NCBI GenBank assembly: GCA_008501765.1
Contig: QQUE01000007.1
Span: forward strand, 606,186 to 670,185
Origin: Calditrichota bacterium
Lineage (GTDB): Bacteria > Zhuqueibacterota > Zhuqueibacteria > Zhuqueibacterales > Geothermadaptataceae
DNA: 64,000 bases
Reading direction: 5' to 3'
This document shows positions 27,759 to 53,360 of this stretch, piece after piece. How positions within the stretch are numbered: the stretch's first letter is position 1; each line of letters starts with the position of its first letter. The position numbers were made by a program, and so were the translations under genes. Below the pieces are notes generated by a model, which saw nothing but the letters and a program-made list of their open reading frames with translations, ran no database searches and was not told where the DNA came from.

Positions 27759-27795
27759 GCGGCCTTCAGGGTAAGAATTTGAAATTTAAATTTAG

Positions 27796-27868: not shown

Positions 27869-27876
27869 ATCCTTAC

Positions 27877-27918
27877 CAAAAAAATATGCTGCCCCGGAAC
27901 AATCCTTGGCAGCATATT
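27877..27918 (-). terminator. Hairpin plus U-tract between tRNA-Phe and tRNA-Thr
   Basis: 'aatatgctgcc...ggcagcatatt' is an 11-bp stem, followed on the minus strand by 7-8 T. Confidence 0.5.
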
Positions 27919-27927
27919 TTCAAAGTG

Positions 27928-28000
27928 TGGGCAGGGGCAGAATTGAACTGCCGACACATGGATTTTCAGTCCATTGCTCTACCGACTGAGCTACCTGCCC
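27928..28000 (-). tRNA. tRNA-Phe (anticodon GAA)
   Basis: Reverse-complement cloverleaf: acceptor GGGCAGG/CCTGCCC, D-arm GCTCAGTCGGTAGAGC, anticodon loop CT-GAA-AA, T-loop TTCAATT. Confidence 0.95.
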
Positions 28001-37516: not shown

Positions 37517-37960
37517 TTAATTTAAACCTCTTCCAGATTTTTTCAAAATTCCTTTTTCTTTTAAATCCACCAAAATCGCATCTGCAATTCCATTCACAAA
37601 ACGCCCGCTTTGCTCTGTGCTGAACTTTTTCGCGATTTCGATACCTTCATCAATCGAGACTTTCGGTGGAATATCCGTAAAATTCAGAAATTCACAAATA
37701 ATCAACCGCAAAACTATTTTATCGAGCACGGCGATTCGATTAAAATCCCAGTTCGTAGCACGGGCCATGATGAGCTTATCGAATTCTTCTTTGTGGGATA
37801 CCGTCTTTTCAAATAGAGCTACGGCAAAATCGGTAACCACCGCCGGTTCATCCAGATTTAAAATTGAAGTATCGATGACATTCCTTGGTGTGTTACCCGA
37901 AAACTCGAACGCGTAACACGCCTGTACGGCAATTTCTCTTGCTCTTCTTCTTGTACTCAT
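37517..37960 (-). CDS. nusB: Transcription antitermination factor NusB
   Basis: 'RRRAREIAVQACYAFEF' N-terminus, 'DRIAVLDKIVLRLIICEF' and 'INEAIEIAKKF'-like helices. Confidence 0.9.
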   Translation of the reverse strand: MSTRRRAREIAVQACYAFEFSGNTPRNVIDTSILNLDEPAVVTDFAVALFEKTVSHKEEFDKLIMARATNWDFNRIAVLDKIVLRLIICEFLNFTDIPPKVSIDEGIEIAKKFSTEQSGRFVNGIADAILVDLKEKGILKKSGRGLN

Positions 37961-38880
37961 TAAAAGACACGCGTCAACCAGTTATATTTATCTTCCGCCT
38001 TGCCGGTGATTATATCAAAATAGCGCTTTTGTACGTATTTCGTTATCGCACCGGGTTTGCCATTGCCGACTTCAATTTTGTCGATGGTGCGAATCGGTGT
38101 AATCTCAGCAGCGGTGCCGGTAAAGAATATTTCATCAGCGAGATACAACATTTCCCGCGGGATGAAGGTTTCCTGCAACTCAACCCCTTTTTCCTGCAAA
38201 AATTTGAATGCGCAGTCCCGCGTTATCCCTTTAAGAATTGAGGAAGCGACCGGCGAAGTATAACATTTGCCGTCGACCATTATAAATATATTTTCACCGG
38301 AACCTTCACTCACGTAGCCGTTTTGATCTAACAGAATGCCTTCAACATAGCCATCTGCTGCAGCTTCCATTTTTACGAGCTGTGAGTTCAAATAATGCCC
38401 GCCCGCTTTTGAAAGCGAGGGCAGTGCAGCCGGTTTCTGCCAGGACGATACCCGCACATCGACGCCGTTATCAAGCGCTTCAGTGCCGAGATATTTGCCC
38501 CATTTCCAGGCGCCGATGACAACCTCAACCGGATTTGGACGGGGATCGACGCCAAGCGTGCCGTAGCCACGGAAAGCAAATGGCCGCAGATAGGCGTCCT
38601 TGAACTTATTTTTTCGCAATACCTCAACACAGACTTCACAAAGTTCGTCCGCTGAATATGGTATTTCCATGCGATAGATTTTAGCAGACCTGTACAACCG
38701 GTCGATATGCTCTTTCAACCGGAGAATACTGGCGCCACCCTTCACATCCGGATAGCAACGCAAGCCTTCAAATACACTTGAGCCGTAATGAATCACATGC
38801 GACATGACATGAATTGTTGCATCTTCCCACTTTTTATACTCACCACTAAACCATAATGTACTGTTTCCGTCAAAAGCCAT
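37960..38880 (-). CDS. ilvE: Branched-chain amino acid aminotransferase
   Basis: Fold-type IV PLP enzyme motifs 'HYGSSVFEGLRCY', 'KAGGHYLNSQL' and 'GITRD'. ATG at 38880 has a GAGG RBS. The stop overlaps the nusB start. Confidence 0.9.
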   Translation of the reverse strand: MAFDGNSTLWFSGEYKKWEDATIHVMSHVIHYGSSVFEGLRCYPDVKGGASILRLKEHIDRLYRSAKIYRMEIPYSADELCEVCVEVLRKNKFKDAYLRPFAFRGYGTLGVDPRPNPVEVVIGAWKWGKYLGTEALDNGVDVRVSSWQKPAALPSLSKAGGHYLNSQLVKMEAAADGYVEGILLDQNGYVSEGSGENIFIMVDGKCYTSPVASSILKGITRDCAFKFLQEKGVELQETFIPREMLYLADEIFFTGTAAEITPIRTIDKIEVGNGKPGAITKYVQKRYFDIITGKAEDKYNWLTRVF

Positions 38881-38950
38881 TTTGGACCTCAAGCTTTAGT
38901 TGTTATTAGCCTTCAAATAATTAATTTAAATTAAGTTAATAAACGACAAT

Positions 38951-40093
38951 TTATCCTTTCAAGACACCGCGACTGATGACCACTTTTTGAATTTCACTGG
39001 TGCCCTCGTAAATCTCGGTAATTTTGGCATCACGCATAAAGCGTTCAACCGGATAATCTTTGATATAACCATAACCGCCGTGAATTTGCACCGCTTTATC
39101 AGCGCAGAACATGGCAGTTTCTGCCGCGTATAGTTTTGCCCGCGCAGAAGCCATGGAAAAATCGAGCCCACGGTCTTTACGACTGGCAGCATCATAAATC
39201 AAATAGCGTGACGCATGAATTCGCACATCCATCTCCGCAATCATAAACTGAATCGCTTGCTGGGCTGCGATCGGTTTGCCAAATTGAACACGCTCTTTGG
39301 AATAAGCGACGGCAGCGTCAAACGCACCGACGGCAATTCCCAAAGCCTGGGAAGCAATTCCGATGCGCCCTTTGTTCAAAATATTCATCGCCAGTGAGAA
39401 TCCCTTTTCCGGGCTGCCGAGTGTATTTTTCTGTGGAACACGGCAGTTTTCCAAAATAATTGAACACGTATCTGAACTGCGGATTCCCAGTTTTTTCTCT
39501 TTTCTGCCAACGATAAATCCCGGTGTATCGCTATCCACAATGATACACCGGACACCGGCATAGCCGCTTGCTTTGTCTTCCGTTGCAAAAACGATATGCA
39601 CCTTGGCCTGCGTGCCGTTGGTGATGAAATTTTTCGTCCCGTTGATTATCCAGTCCTCACCATCTCGCACAGAAGTCGTTAGCATTGCTGAGGCATCTGA
39701 GCCGGTCGCGGGCTCGGAAAGGCAGAAGGCGCCAAGTTTTTCACCGGCAGCCAGTGGCCGAAGGTATTTTTCCTTCTGCTCCTCAGTGCCATATTTTTCC
39801 AGGCCGTAGCAAACCAGCGAATTATTGACCGAAGCAATCACTCCGGCAGAGGCATCAACACGGCTGAGCTCTTCGATGAGAATCGAGTAGGCGATTGTAT
39901 CCATGCCACCACCACCCCACTGTGGAGAAACCTGCAAACCCATAAAGCCAAGTTCGCCCATTTTTTTAACATGTGCGGTCGGAAATTTTTCTTCAGCATC
40001 ACGCTCCCGGGCATCTTTTGCCAGCTCGTTTTCTGCAAAATCGCGAACTGTCTGGCGCACCATTTCCTGTTCTTCAGTATAAGTAAAATCCAT
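38951..40093 (-). CDS. Acyl-CoA dehydrogenase (short-chain/butyryl-CoA dehydrogenase-like)
   Basis: 380 aa. '[11 protein letters not shown]', '[18 protein letters not shown]' with the SCAD/MCAD-type catalytic Glu. Confidence 0.9.
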
Positions 40094-40162
40094 TCTTTCC
40101 TCTATCTAAACTTTCAAAATATTAAAAATAAGGCAGATTAATCAATTCTATTTTAAATGTCT

Positions 40163-40270
40163 TGTCATTCCGGTATGCTTTTTTGCCGGTATCTCCCAGA
40201 TTCGTTGCTAAACCAGAAAACATAGATCCCGGTATTTTACTCCGTTTCACTTCATAATAACCGGGATGAC
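40163..40270. repeat. About 108-bp element with GTCATTCCGGT / ACCGGGATGAC termini inside the operon
   Basis: The termini are inverted repeats (10/12). 'ccggtat' is repeated three times inside. A second element with the same termini lies at 54663-54755. Confidence 0.35.
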
Positions 40271-40285
40271 TCAAAAATAAATCAA

Positions 40286-41137
40286 TCACGAATAGTCATA
40301 AAAACCACGACCTGATTTTCGTCCCATGTGTCCGGCAGCTACCATCTTGCGCAATAGTGGACAGGGTCGATATTTGTCATCACCAAGCTGGGTGTGCAGC
40401 ACTTCCATGATGTGCAAACAGACGTCAAGACCGATAAAATCTGCCAAAACCAGCGGTCCCATCGGGTGCGCCATACCCAGTTTCATCACAGTGTCGATAG
40501 CTTCCGGCTCTGCCACGCCTTCCATCACGCAGAAAATCGCTTCGTTGATCATCGGCATGAGCACACGATTTGACACAAATCCAGGAAAATCATTGACTGC
40601 CACAGGCTCTTTGCCAAGCTTGCGACTCAATTCCATGATCGACTCAAATAAAACATCATCCGTCGCCAATCCTCGGATGACTTCGACTAATTTCATCATT
40701 GGAACCGGGTTAAAGAAATGCATGCCGATGACTTTTTCCGGCCGGCTCGTGGCCGCTGCAATTTCTGTAATAGAAATTGATGACGTATTGGTTGCAAGAA
40801 TCGTTTCAGCAGAACAGAGATTGTCCAACTGCTTAAAAAGGTCTTTTTTAACGCTGCTGTTTTCAGAAGCCGCTTCCACCACCAATTGTGCATTTGCTGC
40901 CGATTTTAATTCTGAACTCGTCTGAATCCGTGCCAGTGCATTTTTCAAATCATCTGCCGAGATGAATTCTTTTTTAACCTGCCGTTGCAAGTTTTTTTCG
41001 ATGGTTGCCATCGCTTTTTCCAGAGCGCTGGCCGAGATATCAATCAGATTTACATTGTAACCGTTTGCTGCAAAAACATGGGCAATGCCGTTGCCCATCG
41101 TACCGCTGCCGATGACGGCAACTTGTTTAATTTCCAT
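40286..41137 (-). CDS. hbd: 3-hydroxybutyryl-CoA dehydrogenase
   Basis: Rossmann '[14 protein letters not shown]', '[14 protein letters not shown]', 'PGFVSNR'. ATG at 41137 has an AGGAGA RBS. Confidence 0.9.
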
Positions 41138-41232
41138 GAATTCTCCTGACATTGAAACCAACCATATTATTTTTCATCATGCCGGACATGAGAAATTTAT
41201 ATTAATGTTAGAATAAAAATACCGTCCATAAA

Positions 41233-42420
41233 TTAAATGCGTTCCACTATCATCGCTGCTGCTTCACCGCCGCCAATGCACAACGTAGCCAAACCGAAAC
41301 GTTTTTGTTTCTGTTCCAACGCATAAAGTAGTGTGGTCAAAATACGGGCACCACTTGCGCCGATGGGATGGCCGATAGCCACAGCGCCACCGTGTACATT
41401 GACTTTTTCTGCAGGAATAGAGAGCTGATCGATTGCGACCATGGTCACGACGGAAAATGCTTCATTGATCTCGAAAAGATCGATATCGCCAATGGTCATT
41501 CCGGCGCGATCGAGTGCTTTTTTCATCGCATCAACAGGAGCGATAGTAAACCATTCCGGTTCGCGGGCTGCGGAAGCATGGGCGATGATTCGCGCCTGTG
41601 CTTTGATGCCTTCACGCTTAGCAACATCTTCACCCAAAACAACCATAGCTGCGGCACCATCATTTATTTTTGATGCGTTTGCTGCTGTCACTGTACCCTC
41701 TTTATCAAATGCCGGCCGTAAAGATGGCATCTTTGCAAAATTGGCTTTTCCCGGTTCATCGTCCAGCGTCACCATCACTGGATCGCCCTTTCGCTGGGGA
41801 ATGGCGACCGGAGTAATCTCGGCATTAAAGTAGCCATTCGCAACCGCAGTTTGTGCTTTTTTGTAGCTGTCAATGGCAAATTTATCTTGTGCTTCGCGCG
41901 TATAATTGTACTCCTTAGCACATAATTCGGCCGCATTTCCCATGTGAAAATTATTGTAAACGTCCCACAATCCATCGTTAATCATGCCGTCGATTACAGT
42001 GCCGTGTCCCAGGCGGTAGCCATTGCGCGCTTTGTCGAGCAAATACGGCGTCTGGCTCATATTTTCCATGCCACCCGCCACGACGATGTCAGCATCATTT
42101 GTGGCGATGGATTGGGATGCCAGCATGACGGATTTCAAACCACTGCCGCAAACTTTGTTGATCGTCATGCAGGTTGTCGAAGTCGGAAGTCCGGCGCCCA
42201 ATGCTGCCTGCCGAGCCGGCGCCTGTCCCATGCCGGCCGGTAAAACACAGCCCATTATTACTTCATCAATCTGCTCGTTTGCAAGTTTCGCCCGGTGGAC
42301 AGCTTCTTTCACTACGGTAGCCCCGAGATCGGTGGCTTTGACACCTGCCAGCGAGCCATTAAATGCACCAACGGCTGTTCTATTTGCTCCAGCAATAACG
42401 GCTTTTCGAGAATTACTCAT
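41233..42420 (-). CDS. Acetyl-CoA C-acetyltransferase (thiolase II)
   Basis: Active-site 'INKVCGSGLKSV', 'NVHGGAVAIGHPIGASGARIL', 'ATLCIGGGEAAAM'. Confidence 0.93.
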   Translation of the reverse strand: MSNSRKAVIAGANRTAVGAFNGSLAGVKATDLGATVVKEAVHRAKLANEQIDEVIMGCVLPAGMGQAPARQAALGAGLPTSTTCMTINKVCGSGLKSVMLASQSIATNDADIVVAGGMENMSQTPYLLDKARNGYRLGHGTVIDGMINDGLWDVYNNFHMGNAAELCAKEYNYTREAQDKFAIDSYKKAQTAVANGYFNAEITPVAIPQRKGDPVMVTLDDEPGKANFAKMPSLRPAFDKEGTVTAANASKINDGAAAMVVLGEDVAKREGIKAQARIIAHASAAREPEWFTIAPVDAMKKALDRAGMTIGDIDLFEINEAFSVVTMVAIDQLSIPAEKVNVHGGAVAIGHPIGASGARILTTLLYALEQKQKRFGLATLCIGGGEAAAMIVERI

Positions 42421-42512
42421 TATTGACTCCGTACTTTTTAAAAATCATTTTAAAATAGAAAATATTTAATTCCAAAACTAACATGCACAAGTTTTTTACC
42501 AACTAAAAACGA

Positions 42513-43355
42513 TTAGCTCAAATCAACTTTTTCCAGCACCCAATCTCTACCATTATTTGTCACAAATCCCGCAGTCGGTTCGGCAGCATGTTCAAATACC
42601 AAAAGCCATTTTTCGGCAGCTGCCTGCTGCAAAAAGCCTGGTTTTAATGCCATCACTTCCAATGGAAAGAGATCGTATCCCATAATGTAGGGTGTTTTCA
42701 GGTGAGAAGGTGTCGGGATGAAATCACCAAGAAAAACTGCGGTTTCGCCACCAGATTTTATTTTTACAATTGTGTTGTTTTGCGTATGTCCGCCCACGAT
42801 TGTAGACTCAATTCCGGGAAGCACTTCGCAGGTTCCGGAAACCAGGGTCAGTTGATCGTTTTCCAACAGGGGTTGCCAATTTTCAACGAGATAGCTCGCT
42901 TTGCTACGGGAGTCTGGATTATTCGCAGCTTCAAACTCCCCTTTTTGGGCAAAATATGTCGCATTTGGAAATGTCGCTACTAGCTTGCCGTCACCATCGC
43001 GCATCGTATTCCAACCGATATGATCAAAATGCATGTGGCTCATAATGACAGCTGAAATATCTTCACGGGAAATGCCTTTGTCAGTAAGCCGATCGAGCAA
43101 AGTTTTTTCACGATTTACCCCATAAATGCGAGCAAATTTTTCATCAAATTTATTTCCAATTCCGGTGTCGATGAGAATTTTTTCGCCGTCTCTCTCGAGA
43201 AGCAAACAATTTAAACCCAGCAGGATGCGATTTTTGTCATCCGCCGGCTCAAGTTTGTTCCACAAAAATTTGGGCACCACACCAAACATGGCACCGCCAT
43301 CGAGCTTAAATTTTCCGTCTGAAATGAGGGAAAGTTCGAAAGAACCAAGTTTCAT
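42513..43355 (-). CDS. MBL-fold metallo-hydrolase
   Basis: 'HMHFDHIGW' (HxHxDH) and a downstream His. 280 aa. Confidence 0.8.
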   Translation of the reverse strand: MKLGSFELSLISDGKFKLDGGAMFGVVPKFLWNKLEPADDKNRILLGLNCLLLERDGEKILIDTGIGNKFDEKFARIYGVNREKTLLDRLTDKGISREDISAVIMSHMHFDHIGWNTMRDGDGKLVATFPNATYFAQKGEFEAANNPDSRSKASYLVENWQPLLENDQLTLVSGTCEVLPGIESTIVGGHTQNNTIVKIKSGGETAVFLGDFIPTPSHLKTPYIMGYDLFPLEVMALKPGFLQQAAAEKWLLVFEHAAEPTAGFVTNNGRDWVLEKVDLS

Positions 43356-43410
43356 TGTATTCCTTTTGTCGCAAATATTCTCTTCAATACGTCAGGTGCA
43401 CTATCACCGG

Positions 43411-43514
43411 GCTTGTCGAAATGCTCGAATGCGAACTTACCGCCAATCGATTCCGGCTTCGACAAGCTCAGTTACCGTGGTATTCCGGTAATTGAGCTTG
43501 CCGAAATGCTCAAC
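43411..43514. repeat. REP-like cluster of overlapping hairpins and direct repeats in an intra-operon spacer
   Basis: Hairpin 'gcttgtcgaa...ttcgacaagc' (43411-43467), hairpin 'agctcagttaccg...cggtaattgagct' (43465-43498), and direct repeat 'cttgYcgaaatgctcRa' at 43412 and 43497. Confidence 0.4.
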
Positions 43515-43573
43515 TTTCAGCCTATTTTTTGTAGCCATACTGGCGTCGACAGTATCAGCCTTCGAGGGAATTT

Positions 43574-44719
43574 TTATTTTACTTCTTTCAAAAGATGCTT
43601 TGAAATTATAATCCGCAGCACTTCGCTGGTGCCTTCGCCAATTTCTGTTAGTTTGGTATCGCGGTAAATTCGCTCTAACGGGTACTCCCGAATATAGCCA
43701 TAGCCACCAAGAATTTGAATAGCTTTTGAAGCCCCACGCATGGCGGCTTCACTGGCGAATAATTTTCCCATCGCTGCTTCTTTGGAGTACGGTTTTCCTG
43801 CGTCACGCAGGCGGGCAGCCTGGTGTACCAGCAACCGTCCGGCTTCAAGCTCGGTTGCCATGTCGGCCAAATACCATTTTATCGCCTGAAAATCAGCGAT
43901 CGTTTTTCCAAATGCAGTGCGATCTTTGGCATAAACTGCCGCGTTTTCCATCGCAGCACGCCCGAGCCCGATCGCCATGGAACCGATGCCGATTCGACCA
44001 CCGTCAAGGGTTTTCATCGCTTGTGGAAAGCCCTGATTTTCAGCTCCCAACAAGTTTTCTTTGGGGATGCGCAAATTATCTATTGAAATTTGCCGGGTAT
44101 CACTGGCCCGCAAGCCCATTTTGTCTTCTTTTTTCCCGGGATTTAATCCGGGTGTATCTTTTTCAACCACAAACATGCTGATTCCTTTTACGCCTAATTC
44201 GGTATCCGTTTTTGCTAAAACAACAAAAACATCAGCATAGCCGCCATTGGTCACCCACTGTTTTGAACCATTGAGAATATAATCATCGCCTTTTTTTTCA
44301 GCGCGCGTCAGCATAGAGCCAGAGTCGGTTCCGGAACCTGGTTCGGACAAACAAAAAGCGCCTATTTTCCTAGCGCTGAGCAAATCAGGTAAATACTTCT
44401 TTTTCTGTTCTTCAGTTCCAAAAAGATAAATTGGCGTTGAACAGAGGGAAACGTGGGCAGCAACAGTCAGCGCGGTTGAGCCACAACCGGCTGCGATCTC
44501 TTCCATCGCCAGGGCAAACGATAATACATCGAATCCGGAACCACCGTACTCTTCCGGGAACGGAATTCCGAGAAATCCTAACTCGCCCATATTTTGCATA
44601 ACAGCCATGGGAAATTCACAGGATTCATCAATTTCAGCAGCTTGCGGCATGATTTCATTTTCAGTAAATTCACGTACTGTGTCGCGCAACATCAGTTGCT
44701 CTTCGGTGAAGTCTGCCAT
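43574..44719 (-). CDS. Acyl-CoA dehydrogenase (substrate unassigned, possibly branched-chain)
   Basis: 381 aa. 'CLSEPGSGTDS', 'LTEIGEGTSEVLRIIISK'. Sits in an atu/liu-like gene context. Confidence 0.88.
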   Translation of the reverse strand: MADFTEEQLMLRDTVREFTENEIMPQAAEIDESCEFPMAVMQNMGELGFLGIPFPEEYGGSGFDVLSFALAMEEIAAGCGSTALTVAAHVSLCSTPIYLFGTEEQKKKYLPDLLSARKIGAFCLSEPGSGTDSGSMLTRAEKKGDDYILNGSKQWVTNGGYADVFVVLAKTDTELGVKGISMFVVEKDTPGLNPGKKEDKMGLRASDTRQISIDNLRIPKENLLGAENQGFPQAMKTLDGGRIGIGSMAIGLGRAAMENAAVYAKDRTAFGKTIADFQAIKWYLADMATELEAGRLLVHQAARLRDAGKPYSKEAAMGKLFASEAAMRGASKAIQILGGYGYIREYPLERIYRDTKLTEIGEGTSEVLRIIISKHLLKEVK

Positions 44720-45105
44720 CTAATTCTCCGTTTTTGCAATCCTTTAAAAATGAAACAGGCTCCAATTCAGTAATTAATTCGATAGAAAGGAGCCGTACTT
44801 AAGAAATTTTAACATCATAAATCATTTTACTAAACTCAAAAAATCGTTTTGATCGAACCAACCAGCAGGATCAAATATAGCATTCTAAGTTAATAAAATC
44901 ATGTCAAACAACAAGATTAAAAATTATAATAAAACTACATTTAATTGAAATTTTATTCAGATAATCAAGGATGATATCTTTCGTAAACGTGCCGTGTTGC
45001 ATGCCTAAAAAATGAAAATCAACAACTGAATTCCAAAAATTATTTATATAAAATAATCTAATTACAAAAGCCATTTATGGTGGACGACAGCGTCCCTAAA
45101 ATGTT

Positions 45106-45879
45106 TTAATTCCCATTAAAACGCGGCATCCTTTTTTCGAAAAATGCATTTAAGGCTTCAACCCGGTCCGCTGTATCAACTGTCGTCTTATAAAATTCAT
45201 GCTCCAATGCCAGCCCATCCTTGAGCGGTTTTTCGATACCCTGGAAAATTGCCTGTTTCGCGGCGCGCAATGCTACTGGTGCGTTAGCTGCTATTTCAAA
45301 CGCCAAATTCATTGCTGCATCCAACAATTTTTCTGTTGAATCCACTTTCTGAACCACCCCAAAACTCAATGCTTCCTGCGCGGAAAATATTTTTGCAGAG
45401 GCAATCCAATATAACGCTTGTGCTGGTCCAATTAGCCGGGCAAGCCGCTGGGTTCCACCCGCGCCTGGAATTATTCCCAATGCCGTTTCCCGCAAGCCCA
45501 TTTTGGCGTCGTCGGCTGCAAGTCTGATATCCGCTGCCAAGGCCAATTCCAGGCCGCCACCAATTGCAGCGCCGTTAATCGCCGCGATCACCGGCACAGG
45601 AATCGATGCAATCGCTGTCATTGCCTGCTGGATTTTAAGCACAGTAACGGCCACATTTTCCACAGCACTATTTTTTCGCTCTTTTAAATCCGCACCAGCG
45701 CAAAAATGCTGACATTGGGATCGAATCACAACGCATCGCACTTTGCTGGCCATCGATTTCTCGGACAGATCGCGGGCTGCCTGGGCTAAATCTGCGACCA
45801 TCTGCATATTCAAAGCATTTACAGGTGGCCGGTTCAGACTTAAAACCGCGACATTTTTATCAATTTCAATACGCAGCAT
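45106..45879 (-). CDS. Enoyl-CoA hydratase/isomerase (crotonase family)
   Basis: 'FCAGADLKER', 'PVIAAINGAAIGGGLELALAAD', 'ETALGIIPGAGGTQRL'. Confidence 0.88.
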   Translation of the reverse strand: MLRIEIDKNVAVLSLNRPPVNALNMQMVADLAQAARDLSEKSMASKVRCVVIRSQCQHFCAGADLKERKNSAVENVAVTVLKIQQAMTAIASIPVPVIAAINGAAIGGGLELALAADIRLAADDAKMGLRETALGIIPGAGGTQRLARLIGPAQALYWIASAKIFSAQEALSFGVVQKVDSTEKLLDAAMNLAFEIAANAPVALRAAKQAIFQGIEKPLKDGLALEHEFYKTTVDTADRVEALNAFFEKRMPRFNGN

Positions 45880-45929
45880 TTTATGAAAGATAAACCACTT
45901 TCAAAATAAATTTGGTAGAAACAAATTAT

Positions 45930-46265
45930 TCATGATTTCAATCCCTCCAACGAATCAATTTCAACTTCCATGTACAGCAATCCAAGGCCATGGGTTTTTC
46001 CCTGTGCGTCTGTTTTCAGGCTTTCAGAGCCACCGCCGCCCAGTGAGTCATGCAGAATAAAATTTAGTGCGCGAATATTCGGCATTTCGTAGCGTTCGAC
46101 CTTACCAAAACAGATTTCCTTGAAATGTGCTTTTAGACGCCCGGGGGTGAGAAGTTCTTTTAAAAAAGTATACCCCGCATCCGTGTATGCAGCGATTCCA
46201 ACATTGCTGCCGTCGCCTTTATCGCCGGAACGGGCGTAAGCTATTTCACTCAATTTAATTTTCAT
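45930..46265 (-). CDS. AtuA C-terminal-like (DUF4387) protein
   Basis: 111 aa. 'LSEIAYARSGDKGDGSNVGI' and 'LGGGGSESLKTDAQGK' match the small domain normally fused to, or directly following, DUF1446/AtuA. Confidence 0.6.
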   Translation of the reverse strand: MKIKLSEIAYARSGDKGDGSNVGIAAYTDAGYTFLKELLTPGRLKAHFKEICFGKVERYEMPNIRALNFILHDSLGGGGSESLKTDAQGKTHGLGLLYMEVEIDSLEGLKS

Positions 46266-46278
46266 AATTTGATATCTC

Positions 46279-47784
46279 TTAATGTTTTAGCTGGCGAATT
46301 GAATCCAAACCCAGGGGTTGTGGCAAAACCCACTGAATCGGTTGAATTGTGCCGTCCTTGCGAACCGTTCTTTCTACATAATAAAATTTCAAAACGCTAT
46401 GCTCAATAAATACATCATCTTCGATTGTGCATCCAAACACGCGGGACGTCCCTTTTATGAGTACATTATTGCCGATTCGCGCAGGATAATCATCGGAGCC
46501 GGTGATATTTACTCCGGACTCGATACGGCAATTGTTGCCGATTATCAGGTTGCCTTTGATAATATCGCCTTTGAAAATCTCGGTATTTGAGCCTATCCGC
46601 ATAACCTGATGATCATAAGTGCTTAAATTTACGCCCTGGTCAATGACGATATATTCCCCTAAAACAATATTGCCTACGAGCTCAGCTCCACTGTTTATCA
46701 CCACCCCTTTATTCAGTTTTACATTGGGCCCGATATAGACTCCCTTGCCAATCTCGATATCGAGTGGTCCGGAGGTTTTGTCCATTTCCAGGATTTGTTC
46801 AACAACTTCGTCGGCGATAAAAAAATCATCCCGGTCGGCAATGGTGATGGTATCCTTCAGTTTATCATAAACCGAATCGCGGGCGATGTTTTCCATCTGT
46901 TTGAGTACGCTTTTAACATTGAATCCGAGCACCGCATTTTCGTCTTTGGTGGCGGCAGCGCCGACTGTTAAACCATCCTGATTAAAAATGTGAATTAAAT
47001 CTGTGATGTACAATTCACCCTGAACATTGTCCTCTTTAAGATGATTTATTTTTTCTGTCAATGCAGTGGCCTTAAATGCAAACAAGCCGGTGTTAAATTC
47101 ATTTATCGCAATGAGTTGCTGTTTGGAAAATGAATATTTTCGATCGTGGTAGGTGATGGTGTAAGGTTTATCATCCGGCAGGGCCAGAATATCTTTATGT
47201 TCTTTAATTTCGATTACCATTCCCGATTCGGGCGAATCCTTTCCCTGATCATCTTTTTCCGGCACACGGACGATGCGCCCGTAATAATTATCTTCCGGTT
47301 TTCCCCGAAACAAGCTGGTCAAAACCATCATATCGCAGACCGTATTTTCAAAATCCTGCCGGAATGTGCTTACGACGTCTTTACTCAGCAGACCAACATC
47401 ACCGGGAAACACATAAATATTGCCGTCGTGCACGTGACCATCCAGCTTTTGCAGACCAATTTTTACGGCATGCCCCGTCCCGCATTGTTCAGCCTGATAA
47501 GCAAAACTGCGGTTGTTTCGTGCACCGCAGGCATTGGCGACATCGACAGCTTTGATACCGACAATAATAATCTGATTATCACAATCAAGGCCGAACTGGG
47601 CTGCACGGGCCACACGCATGACTGTTGGAACGCCCCAAACTTCATGCAGCATTTTCGAGGTCTCTGATTTGATGCGCTTTCCATGTCCCGCGGACAAAAC
47701 CATCGCGATATTTTTTTCATTGAAATTAAGCGGACGCGACAACCTGTTTAAGTGCGCCTCTATTTCTTTAATATTGTTTTCCAT
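46279..47784 (-). CDS. GlmU-like bifunctional-architecture protein (nucleotidyltransferase plus left-handed beta-helix)
   Basis: N-terminal 'LSAGHGKRIKSETSKMLHEV' and 'YQAEQCGTGHAV' resemble GlmU 'LAAGKGTRM' and 'QAEQLGTGHA'. The C-terminal half has hexapeptide repeats ('IGKGVYIGPNVKLNKGVVINSGAELVGNIVLG') but lacks a GlmU-like acetyltransferase tail. Confidence 0.65.
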   Translation of the reverse strand: MENNIKEIEAHLNRLSRPLNFNEKNIAMVLSAGHGKRIKSETSKMLHEVWGVPTVMRVARAAQFGLDCDNQIIIVGIKAVDVANACGARNNRSFAYQAEQCGTGHAVKIGLQKLDGHVHDGNIYVFPGDVGLLSKDVVSTFRQDFENTVCDMMVLTSLFRGKPEDNYYGRIVRVPEKDDQGKDSPESGMVIEIKEHKDILALPDDKPYTITYHDRKYSFSKQQLIAINEFNTGLFAFKATALTEKINHLKEDNVQGELYITDLIHIFNQDGLTVGAAATKDENAVLGFNVKSVLKQMENIARDSVYDKLKDTITIADRDDFFIADEVVEQILEMDKTSGPLDIEIGKGVYIGPNVKLNKGVVINSGAELVGNIVLGEYIVIDQGVNLSTYDHQVMRIGSNTEIFKGDIIKGNLIIGNNCRIESGVNITGSDDYPARIGNNVLIKGTSRVFGCTIEDDVFIEHSVLKFYYVERTVRKDGTIQPIQWVLPQPLGLDSIRQLKH

Positions 47785-47852
47785 ACACAAAACTCCGGAT
47801 TTTAAAATCACTAAGTGGCACTTCACTTAAACCACTCAGCAACTTATCAAAT

Positions 47853-49226
47853 TTAAAATGTTTCTACATGCACGTGGTGATTGATGCGTGTCTTATTTAT
47901 CAACGCCGGCCAATAACTGACGATTTCTGTTGCTTTTGGACGCCCACCTGCAAAACCGGTGACGCCGGGAGGCCCGCTGGTCACCAACGGAACAATCTCC
48001 ATGGCAAACCGGTCAACTTTGGCCCGGTCAGCATCTTTGACGCCGACACGCAGTACAATTTCATCACTTGTGGCCGGCTCAACTGCAATACCTGCATGGC
48101 AGACCGCAGCGCCTAAAAATTCAACCATTTTATTGGCTTCTGAGAAAAAAACATTTTCATAGGCAAGGCGTTTCCAGATGATATCTGCACAAATTTTTGC
48201 TTTTTCCAAAGCATCCGGTCCGGCGATTGTCAGTTGGCCAATTGCTTTGTAGCCATTGGCATAACTGGCTGAAACTTTGAGAAAATCGGTCGCTTTCTTG
48301 CCTCGAATTCCATAAACCCGAACGCGGTCTTTTCCCTGTTCTTCGAGTTTGACGGTCGTAAAATCCACGACAACATCCGGGGTGATATAATTTTCCGGAT
48401 CCCCCATTTCGTACATCAATTGGGAGGTAACAGATTCAATACTGACCTCGCCACCGGTTCCGGGGTGTTTGGTGATGCAAAACTCGCCATCGGCCTTCAT
48501 TTCGATGATCGGATAACCTATCATCGCAAAATTTTCTATTTTTCGCCAATTTGTGTAGTTTGCCCCGGTGCATTGTGCGCCACATTCGACAATGTGTCCA
48601 GCAACTGTGCCGGCCGCCAATTTATCGTAATCATCAAAGTGCCAGCCAAATTCATGCACCATTGGGCCCAGAACCAAAGCCGGATCGGTGACACGCCCGC
48701 AAATAACGATATCTGCTCCCTGATCCAGCGCGTCGACAATTCCTGCTGCGCCAAGATAAACATTGGCCGATGATATTTTTGACCGCACATCCGACCAGGA
48801 TGCTCCGGTATCCATGTTTTTAAACTTTTCGCCGGCGCCTTCCATTTCATCGATGCGGTGCAATATATCATCGCCGGTGACAGTGGCTATTTTTACTCCG
48901 GAGAGCCCAAGCTTTTTTACGACCGCACCAGCGGCTTCGAGGCAGGCCTGCGCGTTCACCCCGCCAGCACTGGCAATTATGCGAACACCTTTTTCCTGCG
49001 CTTCCGGCAGAATGCGCTCAAGTAATTTGATAAAATCTGTTGCATAGCCGGCGTCCGGGTTGCGGGATTTCAGTTTCTGCATTATGCTCATTGTCACTTC
49101 AGCAAGATAATCCAGAGTTAAATAATCGATGGGACCTTCACGCAAAAGACGGATTGGGCCAAGAATGGAATCACCCCAAAATCCCTGGCCATTGGAAATG
49201 AGTACTTTTTCTTTTTTGTTTTTCAT
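47853..49226 (-). CDS. Acyclic terpene utilisation AtuA family (DUF1446) protein
   Basis: 457 aa. 'NGQGFWGDS', 'DYLTLDYLAEVTMSI', 'GGVN...ACLEA', 'VICGRVTD' are typical of DUF1446. Confidence 0.7.
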   Translation of the reverse strand: MKNKKEKVLISNGQGFWGDSILGPIRLLREGPIDYLTLDYLAEVTMSIMQKLKSRNPDAGYATDFIKLLERILPEAQEKGVRIIASAGGVNAQACLEAAGAVVKKLGLSGVKIATVTGDDILHRIDEMEGAGEKFKNMDTGASWSDVRSKISSANVYLGAAGIVDALDQGADIVICGRVTDPALVLGPMVHEFGWHFDDYDKLAAGTVAGHIVECGAQCTGANYTNWRKIENFAMIGYPIIEMKADGEFCITKHPGTGGEVSIESVTSQLMYEMGDPENYITPDVVVDFTTVKLEEQGKDRVRVYGIRGKKATDFLKVSASYANGYKAIGQLTIAGPDALEKAKICADIIWKRLAYENVFFSEANKMVEFLGAAVCHAGIAVEPATSDEIVLRVGVKDADRAKVDRFAMEIVPLVTSGPPGVTGFAGGRPKATEIVSYWPALINKTRINHHVHVETF

Positions 49227-49307
49227 TGACTCTGTATCATTTTAAGTTTGAAAAAAAATTATTTAAACACTCCAAATACAGCTGGAAATTCTGATTTGAG
49301 TAAAAAA

Positions 49308-49376
49308 CAGACCACAAGGATCTGGACTACAATTTCAAAATGAATGAATAATTTGTAGCCAACCCCCTTGTGGGGC
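49308..49376 (-). terminator. Long hairpin terminator after the carboxyltransferase gene
   Basis: 'ccacaagg..ctggactacaa / ttgtagcc..ccttgtgg' inverted repeat, followed on the minus strand by 'gtttttt'. It lies 50 nt after the stop at 49427. Confidence 0.55.
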
Positions 49377-49426
49377 ACTATCTGACCAGAATTTTAGAAT
49401 TTCTAACCAATCAAAAAAAATCATTT

Positions 49427-51091
49427 CTACATGCGCATTACACCGGTAATATAGGGCGGTAAAACCACGTTGTGCGCGGCCATTTCCAACCCGTTTATCA
49501 AAGCCGGGCGTGTTTCACGCGGATCGAGAATATCGTCTACGACAAGGCGGGCTGCGGAATAATATGGCGATGCTTCGTGCGCATATTTATCAACTAATTT
49601 CTCACGAAATTTGGCACGCTCATCATCATTCAGATTTTTTTTGGTTAATAAAACCGTGTCGGCTGCAATGCCGCCATCCATCACTGCGAGGCGGGCTGTC
49701 GGCCAGGAATATATCAGGCGCGGATCGTAAGCTTTGCCGCACATGGCGTAGTTTCCAGCACCAAAACTGTTGCGCAAAACGACGGTAAATTTGGGCACGA
49801 TTGAATTGGCCTGCGCATTGACAAACTGCGCCCCATCTTGAATTATGCCGTTGGATTCCGCCATTTTTCCGACCATAAAACCAGTTACATCTTGTAGAAA
49901 AATTAATGGGATACGCCGCTCATTGCACAGCATGATAAATTGCGTGGCTTTGTTCGCCGAATCACTATAAATGACATTTCCGAGCTGCATTTGCGGCGGC
50001 TGAGCTTTGCCAAAGTTATCCGGGGGCATTTGCTTTTTTACTGCCTTGCCCTGATTGGCGACGATGCCAACTGAAAAACCACCGATGCGGGCGAAAGCCG
50101 TAACCAAAGTAAGGCCAAATTTGGCTTTGTACTCCTGAAAGCGACTGCCATCAACAATGCGGGCAATTATTTCTCGTGCTTCGTAAGCTCCCGAGAGATT
50201 TTCCGGCAAAATACCGAGCAATTCATCGGGATCGTAGGCGGGATTTTCACTGGCGATGCGATCGAAAGGTGAACTTAGGGCTGGGCCAATCGCAGCCATT
50301 TGATCGCGAATCCATTCGAGGGCTTCGTCTTCGTTGGCAAATTCATAATCAGCCACGCCACTCACCGTATTATGCATGGTTGCGCCGCCGAGTGTTTCCA
50401 TGTCAACATTCTGGCCCAGGGCAGAGCGGACAAGAAAAGGCCCGGCAAGGAACATACTGGCATTTGCCGTTACCATGCCAAGATCGCTGGACATGCCGGG
50501 CAAATAGGCGCCTCCGGCAACACAAAAACCGAAGACGCAGGAAATTTGTGGAATCCCCATCGCTGCCATTTTTGCGTTGTTGCGGAAAACCCGGCCAAAA
50601 TGCTCGCGGTCCGGGAAAATTTCTGCCTGCCGCTCGAGATTCACGCCTGCAGAATCCACCATATAAATTATGGGGAGATTGTTTTCCATGGCCAATTCCT
50701 GCGCACGCAGGTTTTTTTTGCAGGTCATTTCGACCCAGGCCCCGGATTTTACCAACGGATCATTGGCAACGATCACCGCTTTTTTCCCAGCAACAGTGCC
50801 AATGCCGATGATAGTTCCGGCAGCTGGATAGCCGCCGGGAATATCTTCGTACATTTCATATGCAGCGAAAAGGCCAACTTCATAAAACGGGGTGCCGGGA
50901 TCGAGAATTTTTTCGATTTTTAGACGGGCTGTATATTTTCCACGCTTTTTCAACCGTTCGATGGCGGTTGGCGCATATTCATTTATTTCCTGACGGCGGC
51001 TCTCTAAAGTTTTAAGCAAGGAAAGCATCTTTTCCTTCCTTTTGACAAACTCCAAAGCGCCGGAATCCAACTTTGATTGATACTTTTTCAT
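49427..51091 (-). CDS. Acyl-CoA carboxylase carboxyltransferase (beta) subunit, MccB/AtuC-like
   Basis: 554 aa with two crotonase-like CT halves. 'VANDPLVKSGAW', 'SCVFGFCVAGGAY', 'FLQDVTGFMVG', 'GAGNYAMCG'. Confidence 0.9.
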   Translation of the reverse strand: MKKYQSKLDSGALEFVKRKEKMLSLLKTLESRRQEINEYAPTAIERLKKRGKYTARLKIEKILDPGTPFYEVGLFAAYEMYEDIPGGYPAAGTIIGIGTVAGKKAVIVANDPLVKSGAWVEMTCKKNLRAQELAMENNLPIIYMVDSAGVNLERQAEIFPDREHFGRVFRNNAKMAAMGIPQISCVFGFCVAGGAYLPGMSSDLGMVTANASMFLAGPFLVRSALGQNVDMETLGGATMHNTVSGVADYEFANEDEALEWIRDQMAAIGPALSSPFDRIASENPAYDPDELLGILPENLSGAYEAREIIARIVDGSRFQEYKAKFGLTLVTAFARIGGFSVGIVANQGKAVKKQMPPDNFGKAQPPQMQLGNVIYSDSANKATQFIMLCNERRIPLIFLQDVTGFMVGKMAESNGIIQDGAQFVNAQANSIVPKFTVVLRNSFGAGNYAMCGKAYDPRLIYSWPTARLAVMDGGIAADTVLLTKKNLNDDERAKFREKLVDKYAHEASPYYSAARLVVDDILDPRETRPALINGLEMAAHNVVLPPYITGVMRM

Positions 51092-51229
51092 GAATTTCCC
51101 TACATCGATGATTTCGAACGAGTTTCAGAACAAGAATTACCAGGACATGAACTATTTGAACCAAAACGAGAAGTATCGCACAATTTCAAAAATAAGTAGT
51201 AACTATCCGTAAATAAAATAATAGTAATT

Positions 51230-52927
51230 TCAACGAATATCCCGAATTCGCAACTGAGTTGAAATTCGGCCTTGCCACTCATTTTCTTCGATGTAATATG
51301 CAATCTCGATATCATCCGTATTTCCGCGCAAGCGGTGCAGCAATCCACCCAAATTAAATCCGATCGCGTCGATCGCTACATTGTCTTGCGATGCCCGGAA
51401 ACGCAAATGATTGTTGCCTACTATTGACGCTGATCCCACAATTTTAATCCCTTTACTCGAAAATACCGGGCGGGGATTCTGCGGGCCAAATGGCGCCATC
51501 ATTTTTAGCACCTGCATAAATTTACTATCGATTTCCGGTAGCCGGATTTCGCCACTGACGCTCAGGAGGGGCACCAGCATGTCTTCAGTCAACTTTTCTT
51601 CAGCATATCCGTTCAGCCGGTCACGAAGTTCATTGATTTCATCTGAGTTAATGCTCAATCCGGCAGCATATTTGTGACCACCAAAAGCCAGCATTAAATC
51701 ATTGCAGGATTCCAAAGCTTCGTAGACATCAAAACCGTGAATGCTGCGGGCCGAACCTTTGCCGACACCGTTGTCTGTGGAAATCATCACAGTGGGACGG
51801 TAATAGCGTTCAACCAAACGGCTGGCAACAATGCCGATAACTCCCTGATGCCATTTTTCTGAACTGAGTACAAAGAACGAATCATTCTCAGGGTCGCACT
51901 CTTTTTCCACCATGTCGATGGCTTCGTTAAAGGTTTGCTCGTCTATGCTGCGGCGTTCCTGATTGGATTGCTCCAGTAAATTGGCAATTTCCTGTGCTTC
52001 ATCCGCATCCGAGGACGTGAGCATGCGGACAGCTTTCATCGCATCACCCATGCGGCCGACAGCATTAATTCGCGGCGCCATCACGAAGATAATTTGCCCG
52101 GTCCCCAATGTTTTTCCGAGAAGATTTGTATTGCGGAGCAGCGATTTCAAGCCGAGGTTTTCGGTCCGATTCAATTGCTCGAGCCCGGCACGGGTTAATA
52201 TACGATTTTCATCCATGAGCGGAACGATATCAGCCGAAGATCCGATAGCCACAAAATCGAGAAATGGGAAAATAAAATCCGGTTCAATTTCCGATTTTTG
52301 GATCACCCCCTGCATCAATTTAAAGGCAACGCCAACACCGGCCAATTCCTTGAATGGATATGGACAATCGGGCTGTTTGGGATCAAGAACAGCCACCGCA
52401 TCCGGCAGCTCATTCGCTGTTTGGTGGTGGTCACTGACGATAACATCGATGCCTGATTCTCGGGCATATTTCACCTCATCGACTGCCGTTATTCCACAGT
52501 CGACTGTGATAATCAGATCGATATTTAGGCTTTGGGCATGTTCAATGCCGCCACGGCTCAAACCATAGCCATCCACGAGTCGGTTGGGTATAAAATAATG
52601 CACGTCGTGGCCAAGTTTTCGGAAGATCGAAACAAGCATGGCTGTCGACGTTATGCCATCGACATCATAATCCCCATAAATGAGAATATTTTCTTTATTT
52701 TTCAGGGCTTTGAGTATCCGCTCAACACCCGCTTCCATCCCCAGCATTAAAAATGGGTCATACAAATCTTCCAGACCCGAGCGAAAAAAGACCTTTGCAT
52801 CATCTAAAGTCTCAATGCCGCGGTGATAGAGAATATTGCTGAGAATCGGTGGTAATGTCAGTTCTTGAGAAAGTTTGTTTATTAAATCTATTTCTTCTAT
52901 TTCTGTCCTTTGCCATTGCAAGTTCAC
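51230..52927 (-). CDS. recJ: Single-stranded-DNA-specific exonuclease RecJ
   Basis: DHH motifs 'IYGDYDVDGITS', 'ITVDCG', 'VSDHH', and DHHA1 'GGHKYAAG'. Confidence 0.92.
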   Translation of the reverse strand: MNLQWQRTEIEEIDLINKLSQELTLPPILSNILYHRGIETLDDAKVFFRSGLEDLYDPFLMLGMEAGVERILKALKNKENILIYGDYDVDGITSTAMLVSIFRKLGHDVHYFIPNRLVDGYGLSRGGIEHAQSLNIDLIITVDCGITAVDEVKYARESGIDVIVSDHHQTANELPDAVAVLDPKQPDCPYPFKELAGVGVAFKLMQGVIQKSEIEPDFIFPFLDFVAIGSSADIVPLMDENRILTRAGLEQLNRTENLGLKSLLRNTNLLGKTLGTGQIIFVMAPRINAVGRMGDAMKAVRMLTSSDADEAQEIANLLEQSNQERRSIDEQTFNEAIDMVEKECDPENDSFFVLSSEKWHQGVIGIVASRLVERYYRPTVMISTDNGVGKGSARSIHGFDVYEALESCNDLMLAFGGHKYAAGLSINSDEINELRDRLNGYAEEKLTEDMLVPLLSVSGEIRLPEIDSKFMQVLKMMAPFGPQNPRPVFSSKGIKIVGSASIVGNNHLRFRASQDNVAIDAIGFNLGGLLHRLRGNTDDIEIAYYIEENEWQGRISTQLRIRDIR

Positions 52928-52960
52928 AATTATCTAAACTCCTTATCAATGTAAAGCACA

Positions 52961-53360
52961 TCCAAAGTAGGCCTGTAAGCCGAATTCTGTATCCCCAAAA
53001 TCGGGGTGACGGTCATTTATCTAGCCTCGCCATTGCTGACGGGGTCAAGCAACCTACCCATTCCGTTACGCAGAGCGAATTGAGCGGACAACTCTTTTTT
53101 CCCAAAAAGCGGGAAACACGGAACCTATTTGGTCTTGCTCCGGGCGGGGTTTACCATGCCCCCGAATGTCACCACCGGGGCGGTGGGCTCTTACCCCACC
53201 TTTTCACCATCATCCCGAAAATTCGAGACAGTCTATTTTCTGTGGCACTTTCCTCCGATCACTCGAAGTCGCCGTTAGCGACCGCCCTGTCCTTTGGAGT
53301 TCGGACTTTCCTCCGCAAAGTACCGTAGCACCTTGAGGCGACCGTCCGGTCTACTTTGGA
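52961..53360 (-). ncRNA. rnpB: RNase P RNA, bacterial type A
   Basis: The reverse complement carries 'GGAGGAAAGUCCGAACUCC', 'GGUGAAAAGGUGGGGUAAGAGCCCACC', 'GGUAAACCCCGCCCGGAGCAAGACCAAAUAGG' and 'ACAGAAUUCGGCUUACAGGCC'. The P1 stem is CCAAAGUAG/CUACUUUGG. Confidence 0.93.

Follow-up and report, generated by a model that had tools for sequence, protein, structure and literature searches.

A GlmU-like nucleotidyltransferase gene between the two halves of AtuA in a leucine/terpenoid-type acyl-CoA cluster of a Calditrichota bacterium

The window, that is the whole 64-kb stretch of DNA that was analysed, harbours three co-directional open reading frames at positions 45930-49226 of the minus strand, as proposed by an earlier reading made from the sequence alone (hereafter the sequence-only reading). 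These genes encode the N-terminal half of AtuA (AtuA_N), a GlmU-like protein (G), and the C-terminal part of AtuA (AtuA_C), and are followed by an enoyl-CoA hydratase gene (ECH) (Table 1). The spacing within this four-gene unit is 68 (or 26), 13, and 50 nt, and the unit is bounded by gaps of 200 and 386 nt. The most likely start of G is the ATG at 47784, with a GGAG 8 nt upstream, in agreement with the length of 501 aa of the database form of the same protein. Of the two short gaps in the sequence-only reading, the one of 13 nt was confirmed, whereas the one of 26 nt applies only from the upstream GTG and becomes 68 nt from the likely ATG. Base composition is continuous across the three genes, without a break. 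A terminator-like hairpin and a promoter-like site are located within the 200-nt gap preceding AtuA_N, and there is only a hint that AtuA_N-G-AtuA_C-ECH is a transcription unit of its own; the totals of the consensus scan were not above those of shuffles (17 vs 13.5 terminators, and 24 vs 18.2 promoters). No reads mapped to positions 43000-52000 in one small metatranscriptome dataset of the same sample. The stretch is contained in two DNA runs, from which it may itself derive.

Table 1. Genes and predicted signals at the AtuA locus of the window.
Feature	Position	Strand	Evidence
Acyl-CoA carboxylase carboxyltransferase subunit (AtuC/LiuB-like), upstream neighbour	49427-51091	minus	PF01039 Carboxyl_trans, E 1.4e-133
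Terminator-like hairpin with T-run; promoter-like site	49324-49308; 49267-49239	minus	Consensus scan; weak
AtuA_N, N-terminal (catalytic-body) half of AtuA, 457 aa	47853-49226	minus	PF07287, E 2.8e-152, 507.9 bits vs gathering score 22.8
G, GlmU-like nucleotidyltransferase with shortened LbH, 501 aa	46279-47784 (longest ORF from GTG 47826)	minus	PF12804 NTP_transf_3 and PF00132 Hexapep
AtuA_C, separate 111-aa protein, ferredoxin-like domain	45930-46265	minus	PF23544 AtuA_ferredoxin, E 4.7e-27, 95 bits vs gathering score 27
ECH, enoyl-CoA hydratase (AtuE/LiuC-like)	45106-45879	minus	PF00378, E 1.7e-63
Acyl-CoA dehydrogenase, MBL-fold protein, thiolase, 3-hydroxyacyl-CoA dehydrogenase, second acyl-CoA dehydrogenase, class IV (branched-chain type) aminotransferase	37960-44719	minus	Pfam

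The surrounding genes form a leucine/terpenoid-type acyl-CoA cluster. The grouping of carboxyltransferase, hydratase, and acyl-CoA dehydrogenase genes, a trait of the liu/atu type, is present in the window. Neither a biotin carboxylase subunit nor an HMG-CoA lyase was found within the 64 kb, and three Biotin_carb_C matches and one 321-aa HMGL-like ORF were detected elsewhere in the genome. The carboxyltransferase gene also sits ahead of AtuA_N in related loci. ECH, which comes after G or AtuA_C in these loci, is the most constant downstream neighbour of G, and the order G-ECH-ACAD-MBL-thiolase recurs in relative G093.

Between them, the first and third genes encode a single AtuA enzyme in two halves, and AtuA_N is the sole AtuA found by the genome search. 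Both Pfam models, PF07287 and PF23544, are matched above their gathering scores, in line with the assignment of the first gene to DUF1446/AtuA by the sequence-only reading. The same reading recognised the last gene as the domain that normally makes up the AtuA C-terminus or lies next to it, which was correct. Under its name for this domain, DUF4387, no match was seen at E <= 10 in a Pfam copy that may no longer carry a model so named; PF23544 was the only model matched, by the small gene of 22 out of 22 relatives. That AtuA is split here is further seen from fused AtuA proteins of about 600 aa, which bear both domains. These are 44-49% identical to AtuA_N, and the C-terminus of P0123, one of these proteins, shares 51% identity with AtuA_C (E 1e-28). 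Similar to the AtuA encoded here, AtuA of the Pseudomonas atuABCDEFGH cluster has PF07287 and PF23544, and that cluster likewise has a carboxyltransferase and a hydratase next to AtuA. Unlike Pseudomonas AtuA, however, the protein is divided in two with G between the halves. Part of the gene content of that Pseudomonas cluster is described in PMC13399572.

To our knowledge, AtuA has been without a biochemical function for about twenty years. A search of the literature on DUF1446, DUF4387, and PF07287 found nothing on mechanism, and PMC13399572 still describes the function of AtuA as unknown in 2026. The predicted structure of AtuA_N (pLDDT 93.7) had a single PDB match at E <= 0.001 in the fold search, the citramalate lyase 9evf_A (E 1.7e-24, TM 0.77), and the AtuA_N profile matches cmlA of entry 9erq_A (E 3.6e-12). 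CmlA was reached only in these two ways; single-sequence PDB searches with AtuA_N and AtuA_C returned nothing, and AtuA_C did not match the small subunit of CmlAB among PDB sequences, either as a single sequence or as a profile. By profile and predicted fold, AtuA is distantly related to the citramalate lyase CmlAB (PDB 9ERQ, 9EVF; cmlAB of Raoultella planticola), which likewise consists of two subunits. Nevertheless, AtuA_N and CmlA are only 14% identical, and the setting of CmlAB is glutamate fermentation, while AtuA is found here in an acyl-CoA cluster. Cml splits citramalate directly to pyruvate and acetate (10.64898/2026.01.16.699985); the available portion of that work does not place Cml in the AtuA family, and the link to AtuA rests on the molecule name in the PDB. 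A primary paper on CmlAB was not found in the literature search. The most likely role of AtuA, which we infer, is that of a carbon-carbon lyase working on the hydroxymethylglutaryl end of a leucine/terpenoid-type acyl-CoA pathway. An AtuA of the atu/liu type in an uncultured phylum is now tied to a solved citramalate lyase fold.

The description of the middle gene as GlmU-like, with an intact nucleotide-binding site and hexapeptide repeats, was borne out by Pfam, NCBIfam, and alignment. G matches eleven NCBIfam GlmU equivalog models, all far under their cut-offs, the best being NF010934 (173.6 vs 450 bits); on TIGR01173 it reaches 156.1 vs a cut-off of 366.85. Among the proteins of the genome, G scores best against canonical GlmU, whose cut-off none of them reaches. 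The top Foldseek matches of the G model are full-length GlmU proteins (E. coli b3730; PDB 1HV9, 9DQF, 1G95, and others; E 1e-20, TM 0.55/0.60), and phmmer matched G to 9dqf with E 3.1e-27. Database names for G vary, including bifunctional GlmU, NTP transferase, and multidrug transporter.

G is 29% identical to E. coli GlmU. The uridylyltransferase residues R18, K25, Q76, G81, T82, D105, G140, E154, N169, Y197, and N227 (E. coli GlmU numbering) are conserved in 29 out of 29 AtuA-linked G proteins, and each of them in no fewer than 34 of the 36 unlinked proteins. In contrast, H363, Y366, and S405 of the acetyltransferase fall in alignment gaps in all 65 family members (65/65), in accordance with the earlier claim that a GlmU-type acetyltransferase core is missing. 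Both residue lists are those that we take from the E. coli GlmU literature. G also differs from E. coli GlmU in the motif GHGKR instead of GKGTR, in a Lys at T17, in a shorter LbH domain lacking H363, Y366, and S405, and in a conserved C-terminal tail of its own; apart from residues 477 and 483, the model has pLDDT < 50 from residue 462 onwards. E. coli Y103 is replaced by Pro in 29/29 linked and 33/36 unlinked proteins. The sugar-binding lobe of G carries two insertions relative to GlmU, and the protein has an additional N-terminal helix; the insertions noted by the sequence-only reading are real, but they are family-wide and not peculiar to the AtuA-linked copies. No alignment column separated the 29 linked from the 36 unlinked proteins at 85% conservation. 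The search for long fused forms of G gave none at E <= 1e-20, which is weak evidence, and the AtuA domain was absent from all 120 relatives of near-equal length among the matches listed. G represents a widespread and as yet unnamed branch of the GlmU family in which only the uridylyltransferase half is kept.

The genome possesses another GlmU candidate, alt_bact_glmU (NCBIfam TIGR03991, 407.8 bits vs a cut-off of 225.3), so that G is not its only candidate glmU, which was one half of the refuting case named by the sequence-only reading. This gene adjoins anmK, on a contig other than that of G. Both proteins have a nucleotidyltransferase-like domain and LbH; however, G scores only 20.4 bits on the alt_bact_glmU model. 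In eight readable N-termini, alt_bact_glmU lacks the GxGxR motif, yet it has a His opposite GlmU H363, and G has the reverse pattern. It seems that alt_bact_glmU retains only the acetyltransferase-like half of GlmU. The two proteins co-occur in many genomes of the Fibrobacteres-Chlorobi-Bacteroidetes (FCB) group.

A sample of 151 genomes of the phylum contained 41 with both G and AtuA, one with G only, one with AtuA only, and 108 with neither. G is not an essential housekeeping gene, for no G was detected in 109 of these genomes. In the AtuA-bearing lineage G is single-copy, with no separate envelope copy. G and AtuA lie at most 1 kb apart in 33 of the 41 genomes having both, and the synteny is conserved in 11/11 related loci, which speaks against adjacency by chance, the other half of that refuting case. 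The genes remain linked in three or more gene orders (N-G-C, N-C-G, and N-C-[three genes]-G), and also as sequence identity falls from 85% to 47%. Nevertheless, a single gain may account for all five positive families, hence few independent events. In the tree of G, the proteins from wedged loci make up a single clade (SH-aLRT 98), which lies within a set of lineages with the order AtuA_N-AtuA_C-G. This branching suggests that AtuA_N-AtuA_C-G-ECH was the original order and the wedged order is derived; the arrangement of G with AtuA is old in this lineage. In relative G007, AtuA_N lies near the end of a 5-kb contig, and the roughly 700 nt after it show no convincing ORF; this locus was treated as uninformative.

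The G signature AGHGKRI[KR]S was detected at 565 loci in one-genome-per-species contigs, mainly with FCB-group labels among the best 80, while AtuA relatives form at least 6180 clusters. The fetched flanks of 49 of the best 80 of the 565 loci contained no AtuA part, and in 36 of those 49 the flanks extend 2.5 kb or more upstream and 1.5 kb or more downstream. G orthologues with no AtuA within about 6 kb are 50-58% identical and were found in MAGs labelled Ignavibacteria, Neomarinimicrobiota, and Latescibacterota. The settings of unlinked G are envelope or amino-sugar ones, and recurrent neighbours at 47 AtuA-less loci are an MsbA-like ABC transporter (21), an O-antigen-ligase-like Wzy_C (18), and CdsA (6). 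Among five genomes with unlinked G, the genome search gave no AtuA match in three, and in one genome labelled Ignavibacteriaceae AtuA and G are on different contigs. The G tree follows the taxon labels of the submitters, and G is vertically inherited and spread over several related phyla.

We favour, with moderate confidence, the view of G as a sugar-1-phosphate uridylyltransferase that the operon has captured, and not as a step of the pathway. The G family would stem from GlmU, with a complete uridylyltransferase site and a lost acetyltransferase core, and because of this combination G most likely makes a UDP-HexNAc-type sugar nucleotide; for the substrate we infer GlcNAc-1-phosphate, plausibly giving UDP-GlcNAc with UTP. 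In one class of the window's phylum, G would have settled in the catabolic cluster, first as AtuA_N-AtuA_C-G-ECH, and would later have shifted one place to give AtuA_N-G-AtuA_C-ECH. G would probably be co-transcribed with AtuA and the hydratase without performing a pathway step. A long-resident passenger of the operon is more likely than a new step of the breakdown pathway because the same enzyme occurs in many related bacteria without AtuA. The proposal of the sequence-only reading, that the atu/liu pathway may have an activation or modification step not recognised so far, gained no specific support: the family occurs with unchanged catalytic residues in genomes without AtuA, its unlinked members have the neighbourhoods described above, and the separate contigs in the Ignavibacteriaceae-labelled genome also count against it. 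The odd gene between the AtuA halves is probably not the missing clue to AtuA function. Weighed against the passenger explanation were the old and persistent linkage, a presence and absence that track AtuA, the single copy of G in the lineage, the absence of G from 109 of 151 genomes, one Latescibacterota-labelled locus with G beside an enoyl-CoA hydratase and acyl-CoA ligases, and, as regards the putative substrate, the Pro at Y103 and the GHGKR motif.

The persistence over 85% to 47% identity and three gene orders, the tight spacing of the four genes between larger gaps, the single copy of G, and the presence of both genes in 41 of the 43 genomes with either would also be consistent with a true working partner of the AtuA/liu-like pathway. 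Such a partner might, for example, provide the AtuA-type lyase with a nucleotide-linked ligand or an activated intermediate; by its entry title, 9EVF, the solved relative of this lyase, contained ADP when crystallised. It might instead join acyl or acetyl units from the pathway to an amino sugar. We regard this as rather unlikely, as orthologues with the same catalytic residues are present where AtuA was not found, no residues are peculiar to linked G, the two genes are on separate contigs in the Ignavibacteriaceae-labelled genome, AtuA relatives far outnumber G-signature loci, and neighbouring genes can be co-lost by one deletion. It is improbable that a dependence of this lineage's AtuA-type lyase on G has kept G in the cluster, whether for a nucleotide-linked ligand or intermediate, or for turning pathway-derived acyl units into an acylated amino-sugar nucleotide; if true, this dependence would be an undescribed link of branched-chain acyl catabolism with sugar-nucleotide chemistry. 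The predicted complex of AtuA_N 8-454, AtuA_C 1-105, and G 24-465, with the N-terminal helix and C-terminal tail of G trimmed and without a control, scored 0.00 and is uninformative either way. The literature search found no paper joining AtuA and GlmU. There is similarly little probability that G is a housekeeping UDP-GlcNAc pyrophosphorylase, placed here by chance, that provides the uridylyltransferase half of a two-protein GlmU replacement with alt_bact_glmU. Its rank as best GlmU match in a genome with nothing at the cut-off, the complementary decay of the two proteins, their joint presence in four of five genomes searched outside the lineage, and one locus there with adjacent nagB-alt_bact_glmU-G all agree with such a division, and if they share the work of GlmU, hundreds of genomes currently carry a wrong annotation for each of the two. 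Nonetheless, G was not found in most of the phylum sample, its adjacency to AtuA is conserved, and alt_bact_glmU with the same motif-less N-terminus is present in four relatives without G, therefore G is not its obligatory partner. A catalytically inactive scaffold or regulator, enzyme-like in looks only, would fit the loss of the GlmU acetyltransferase residues from the LbH domain and the conserved tail modelled at low confidence, but is very unlikely, given that all nucleotidyltransferase residues checked are invariant or nearly so across the aligned family, a pattern that would be typical of an active enzyme.

The three ORFs proposed by the sequence-only reading are present on the minus strand of the window, with a GlmU-like nucleotidyltransferase gene (G) wedged between the two halves of AtuA (AtuA_N and AtuA_C). 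The start codon of G is probably ATG 47784, since GGAG lies 8 nt upstream and a database copy of the same protein has 501 aa. Of the gaps of 26 and 13 nt first read around G, the second holds, and the first applies only when counted from an upstream GTG. Judging by the short intergenic gaps, AtuA_N, G, AtuA_C and the gene for enoyl-CoA hydratase (ECH) look like a single tight unit; a promoter and terminator scan gave signals no higher than in shuffled sequences.

Features of the AtuA locus in the window; gap lengths are from ORF coordinates
Feature	Position	Strand	Match or length
AtuA (AtuA_N)	47853-49226	minus	PF07287, E 2.8e-152
G	46279-47826 (longest ORF)	minus	NTP_transf_3 + hexapeptide repeats
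AtuA ferredoxin-like domain (AtuA_C)	45930-46265	minus	PF23544, E 4.7e-27
Gap RecJ to carboxyltransferase			138 nt
Gap carboxyltransferase to AtuA_N			200 nt
Gap AtuA_N to G			68 nt (26 nt counted from upstream GTG)
Gap G to AtuA_C			13 nt
Gap AtuA_C to ECH			50 nt
Gap ECH to acyl-CoA dehydrogenase	44720-45105		386 nt, low G+C (about 0.40)

The gap between ECH and acyl-CoA dehydrogenase (ACAD) is probably a transcription-unit boundary. Beyond it, the same-strand string includes genes for an MBL-fold protein (MBL), thiolase, 3-hydroxyacyl-CoA dehydrogenase, a second ACAD and a class IV aminotransferase. The cluster is of the leucine/terpenoid acyl-CoA type; biotin carboxylase, and any HMG-CoA lyase, are encoded elsewhere in the genome. 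RNase P RNA (class A, 297 bits; 52960-53357, minus strand) is located directly upstream of recJ on the strand of the catabolic string, and tRNA-Thr and tRNA-Phe genes were found at 27795-28000.

The split of AtuA into two genes is confirmed by fused relatives of about 600 aa carrying both PF07287 and PF23544, with 44-49% identity to AtuA_N; the 111-aa AtuA_C shares 51% identity with the C-terminus of one of them. The outer genes had been assigned to DUF1446/AtuA and DUF4387. The first assignment stands through PF07287, and the small gene matches PF23544, also in 22/22 relatives, with no profile named DUF4387 among its matches.

G matches 11 NCBIfam GlmU equivalog models, every score far below cut-off (top 173.6 bits vs 450). 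The closest structural match of its model (pLDDT 75.8) is full-length GlmU (E 1e-20). Aligned with E. coli GlmU, G keeps the uridylyltransferase positions R18, K25, Q76, G81, T82, D105, G140, E154, N169, Y197 and N227, and substitutes Lys for T17 and Pro for Y103. The acetyltransferase positions H363, Y366 and S405 are alignment gaps in 65/65 G-family members, in agreement with the reported lack of a GlmU-like acetyltransferase tail. The insertion noticed in G is present but common to the whole family. Between 29 G sequences with AtuA beside them and 36 with none in their flanks (12 short-flank rows excluded), no column was conserved at 85% or more to differing residues.

No protein of the window's genome reaches the GlmU cut-off, and the top match to GlmU is G. 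The genome also encodes another GlmU candidate, alt_bact_glmU (TIGR03991; 407.8 bits vs cut-off 225.3), on another contig, where it follows anmK (L010:1489-2712, G000 contig C8). The GxGxR nucleotide-binding motif is absent from 8/8 readable alt_bact_glmU N-termini (L010, L112-L118, L102 set), of which four belong to G-carrying genomes and four to genomes lacking G, and a His is aligned opposite GlmU H363. Given these opposite decay patterns, G and alt_bact_glmU may split the two GlmU reactions; G is no obligatory partner, since relatives possess alt_bact_glmU without G. The possibility that G is the only glmU of the genome and a chance neighbour of AtuA was not borne out, as alt_bact_glmU is also present and synteny is kept in relatives.

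The adjacency of G and AtuA is conserved in relatives. All 11 loci from the same taxonomic order have AtuA_N-G-AtuA_C, followed by ECH in 10/11, and two genomes from another family have AtuA_N-AtuA_C-G-ECH. Among 151 evenly drawn genomes of the phylum, the window's included, G and AtuA were each found in 42: both in 41, G only in 1, AtuA only in 1 and neither in 108, with positives confined to five families. Where both occur, they lie within 1 kb on one contig in 33/41, 3.5 kb apart in 1, and on different contigs, several at contig ends, in 7 (without the unpublished genomes G016 and G023, 39/149 have both genes, 31/39 within 1 kb). In genome G093, G leads ECH-ACAD-MBL-thiolase with AtuA on another contig. 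Some relatives carry small insertions within the cluster: in G093, an ORF of 417 aa that weakly matches an endonuclease domain precedes G (L119:7239-8492), and a HepT-like ribonuclease gene stands between G and ECH at L062:5475-5939. In G007 (96% complete), G was not found, and the roughly 700 nt from AtuA_N to the contig end contain no convincing ORF (L025:1-714, contig C68); this could be a true loss or an assembly artefact.

A one-genome-per-species scan with the motifs AGHGKRI[KR]S and KMLH detected 565 relatives of G. Among the best 80, the wedged order was seen in 17 and AtuA_N-AtuA_C-G in 10; in 4, part of AtuA adjoins G where the contig ends, and in 49 the flanks (36 ample, 13 short) contain no part of AtuA. 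The AtuA-less loci, from MAGs labelled Ignavibacteria, Melioribacteraceae, Neomarinimicrobiota, Latescibacterota, Bacteroidetes, Spirochaetota, Verrucomicrobia and Nitrospirota, encode G proteins with 50-58% identity to that of the window. Nearby genes in 47 such loci encode ABC transporters (21), ribosomal protein S20 on the opposite strand (20), Wzy_C/O-antigen-ligase-like (18), radical-SAM (17) and PTPS-type proteins (13), and CdsA (6). The clearest amino-sugar setting for G is nagB-alt_bact_glmU-G on a Nitrospirota-labelled MAG contig (L102:545-4573). Five genomes with AtuA-less loci were searched for AtuA: three gave no match, one only a weak match, and G042 has AtuA and G on separate contigs; alt_bact_glmU was present in 4/5 (E <= 1e-10). 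In a Latescibacterota-labelled MAG (L067:5959-11693), G precedes genes for enoyl-CoA hydratase and two AMP-binding acyl-CoA ligases, with no AtuA.

The G tree, built from the window, an outgroup and 76 of the 80 loci after removal of four partial genes, agrees with taxon labels. AtuA-linked sequences fall in one clade (SH-aLRT 96), to which the three Latescibacterota rows also belong. The 18 rows with the wedged order make up a single inner clade (98), together with one unlinked row on a long branch, and a contig-start case of G-AtuA_C-ECH falls outside this inner clade. We infer that this order is derived, on a tree whose outgroup branch is very long and whose root is unsure. On the simplest account, G would be a sugar-1-phosphate uridylyltransferase of the FCB group, derived from GlmU. 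In one class of the window's phylum it would have become a fixed member of a catabolic operon, and a later one-gene hop of G upstream would have separated the two AtuA genes on the map. We lean slightly towards G being resident in the operon without a pathway step. A true role in the AtuA pathway seems unlikely. The resident reading is opposed by a linkage that is old and stubborn, by G being single-copy and by the two genes being present or absent together. The five positive families perhaps represent one event, and neighbouring genes can be lost in one deletion. Literature searches (main texts) on AtuA together with GlmU, and on DUF1446, DUF4387 or PF07287, found nothing about this arrangement, which as far as searched is not in print.

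A passage of a 2026 article still terms the function of AtuA unknown (PMC13399572). Single-sequence PDB searches with AtuA_N and AtuA_C gave no matches. A profile from 34 AtuA_N relatives matches 9erq_A (E 3.6e-12), named 'AtuA family protein | citramalate lyase, subunit A (cmlA)'. The predicted AtuA_N structure (pLDDT 93.7) has a single PDB match at E <= 0.001, 9evf_A (E 1.7e-24, TM 0.77, identity 14%), from the entry 'Citramalate lyase - ADP - pyruvate complex'; no sequence link was found between AtuA_C and the second subunit, CmlB. By analogy, AtuA is here probably a lyase acting near HMG-CoA. A trio of HMG-CoA-synthase-like, thiolase-like and DUF35 genes travels with AtuA (L056:3246-5854, L062:668-3311, L110:2814-5425, L109:59-2571), separating AtuA_C from G in one sub-lineage of the window's phylum (KSB1) and standing just upstream of AtuA_N in one Ignavibacteriaceae-labelled genome. 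The trio ties AtuA to the HMG-CoA/acetoacetyl-CoA node under two phylum labels. In one protein of 1257 aa (P0129), an AtuA domain is joined to TPR repeats and a Ser/Thr protein kinase domain.
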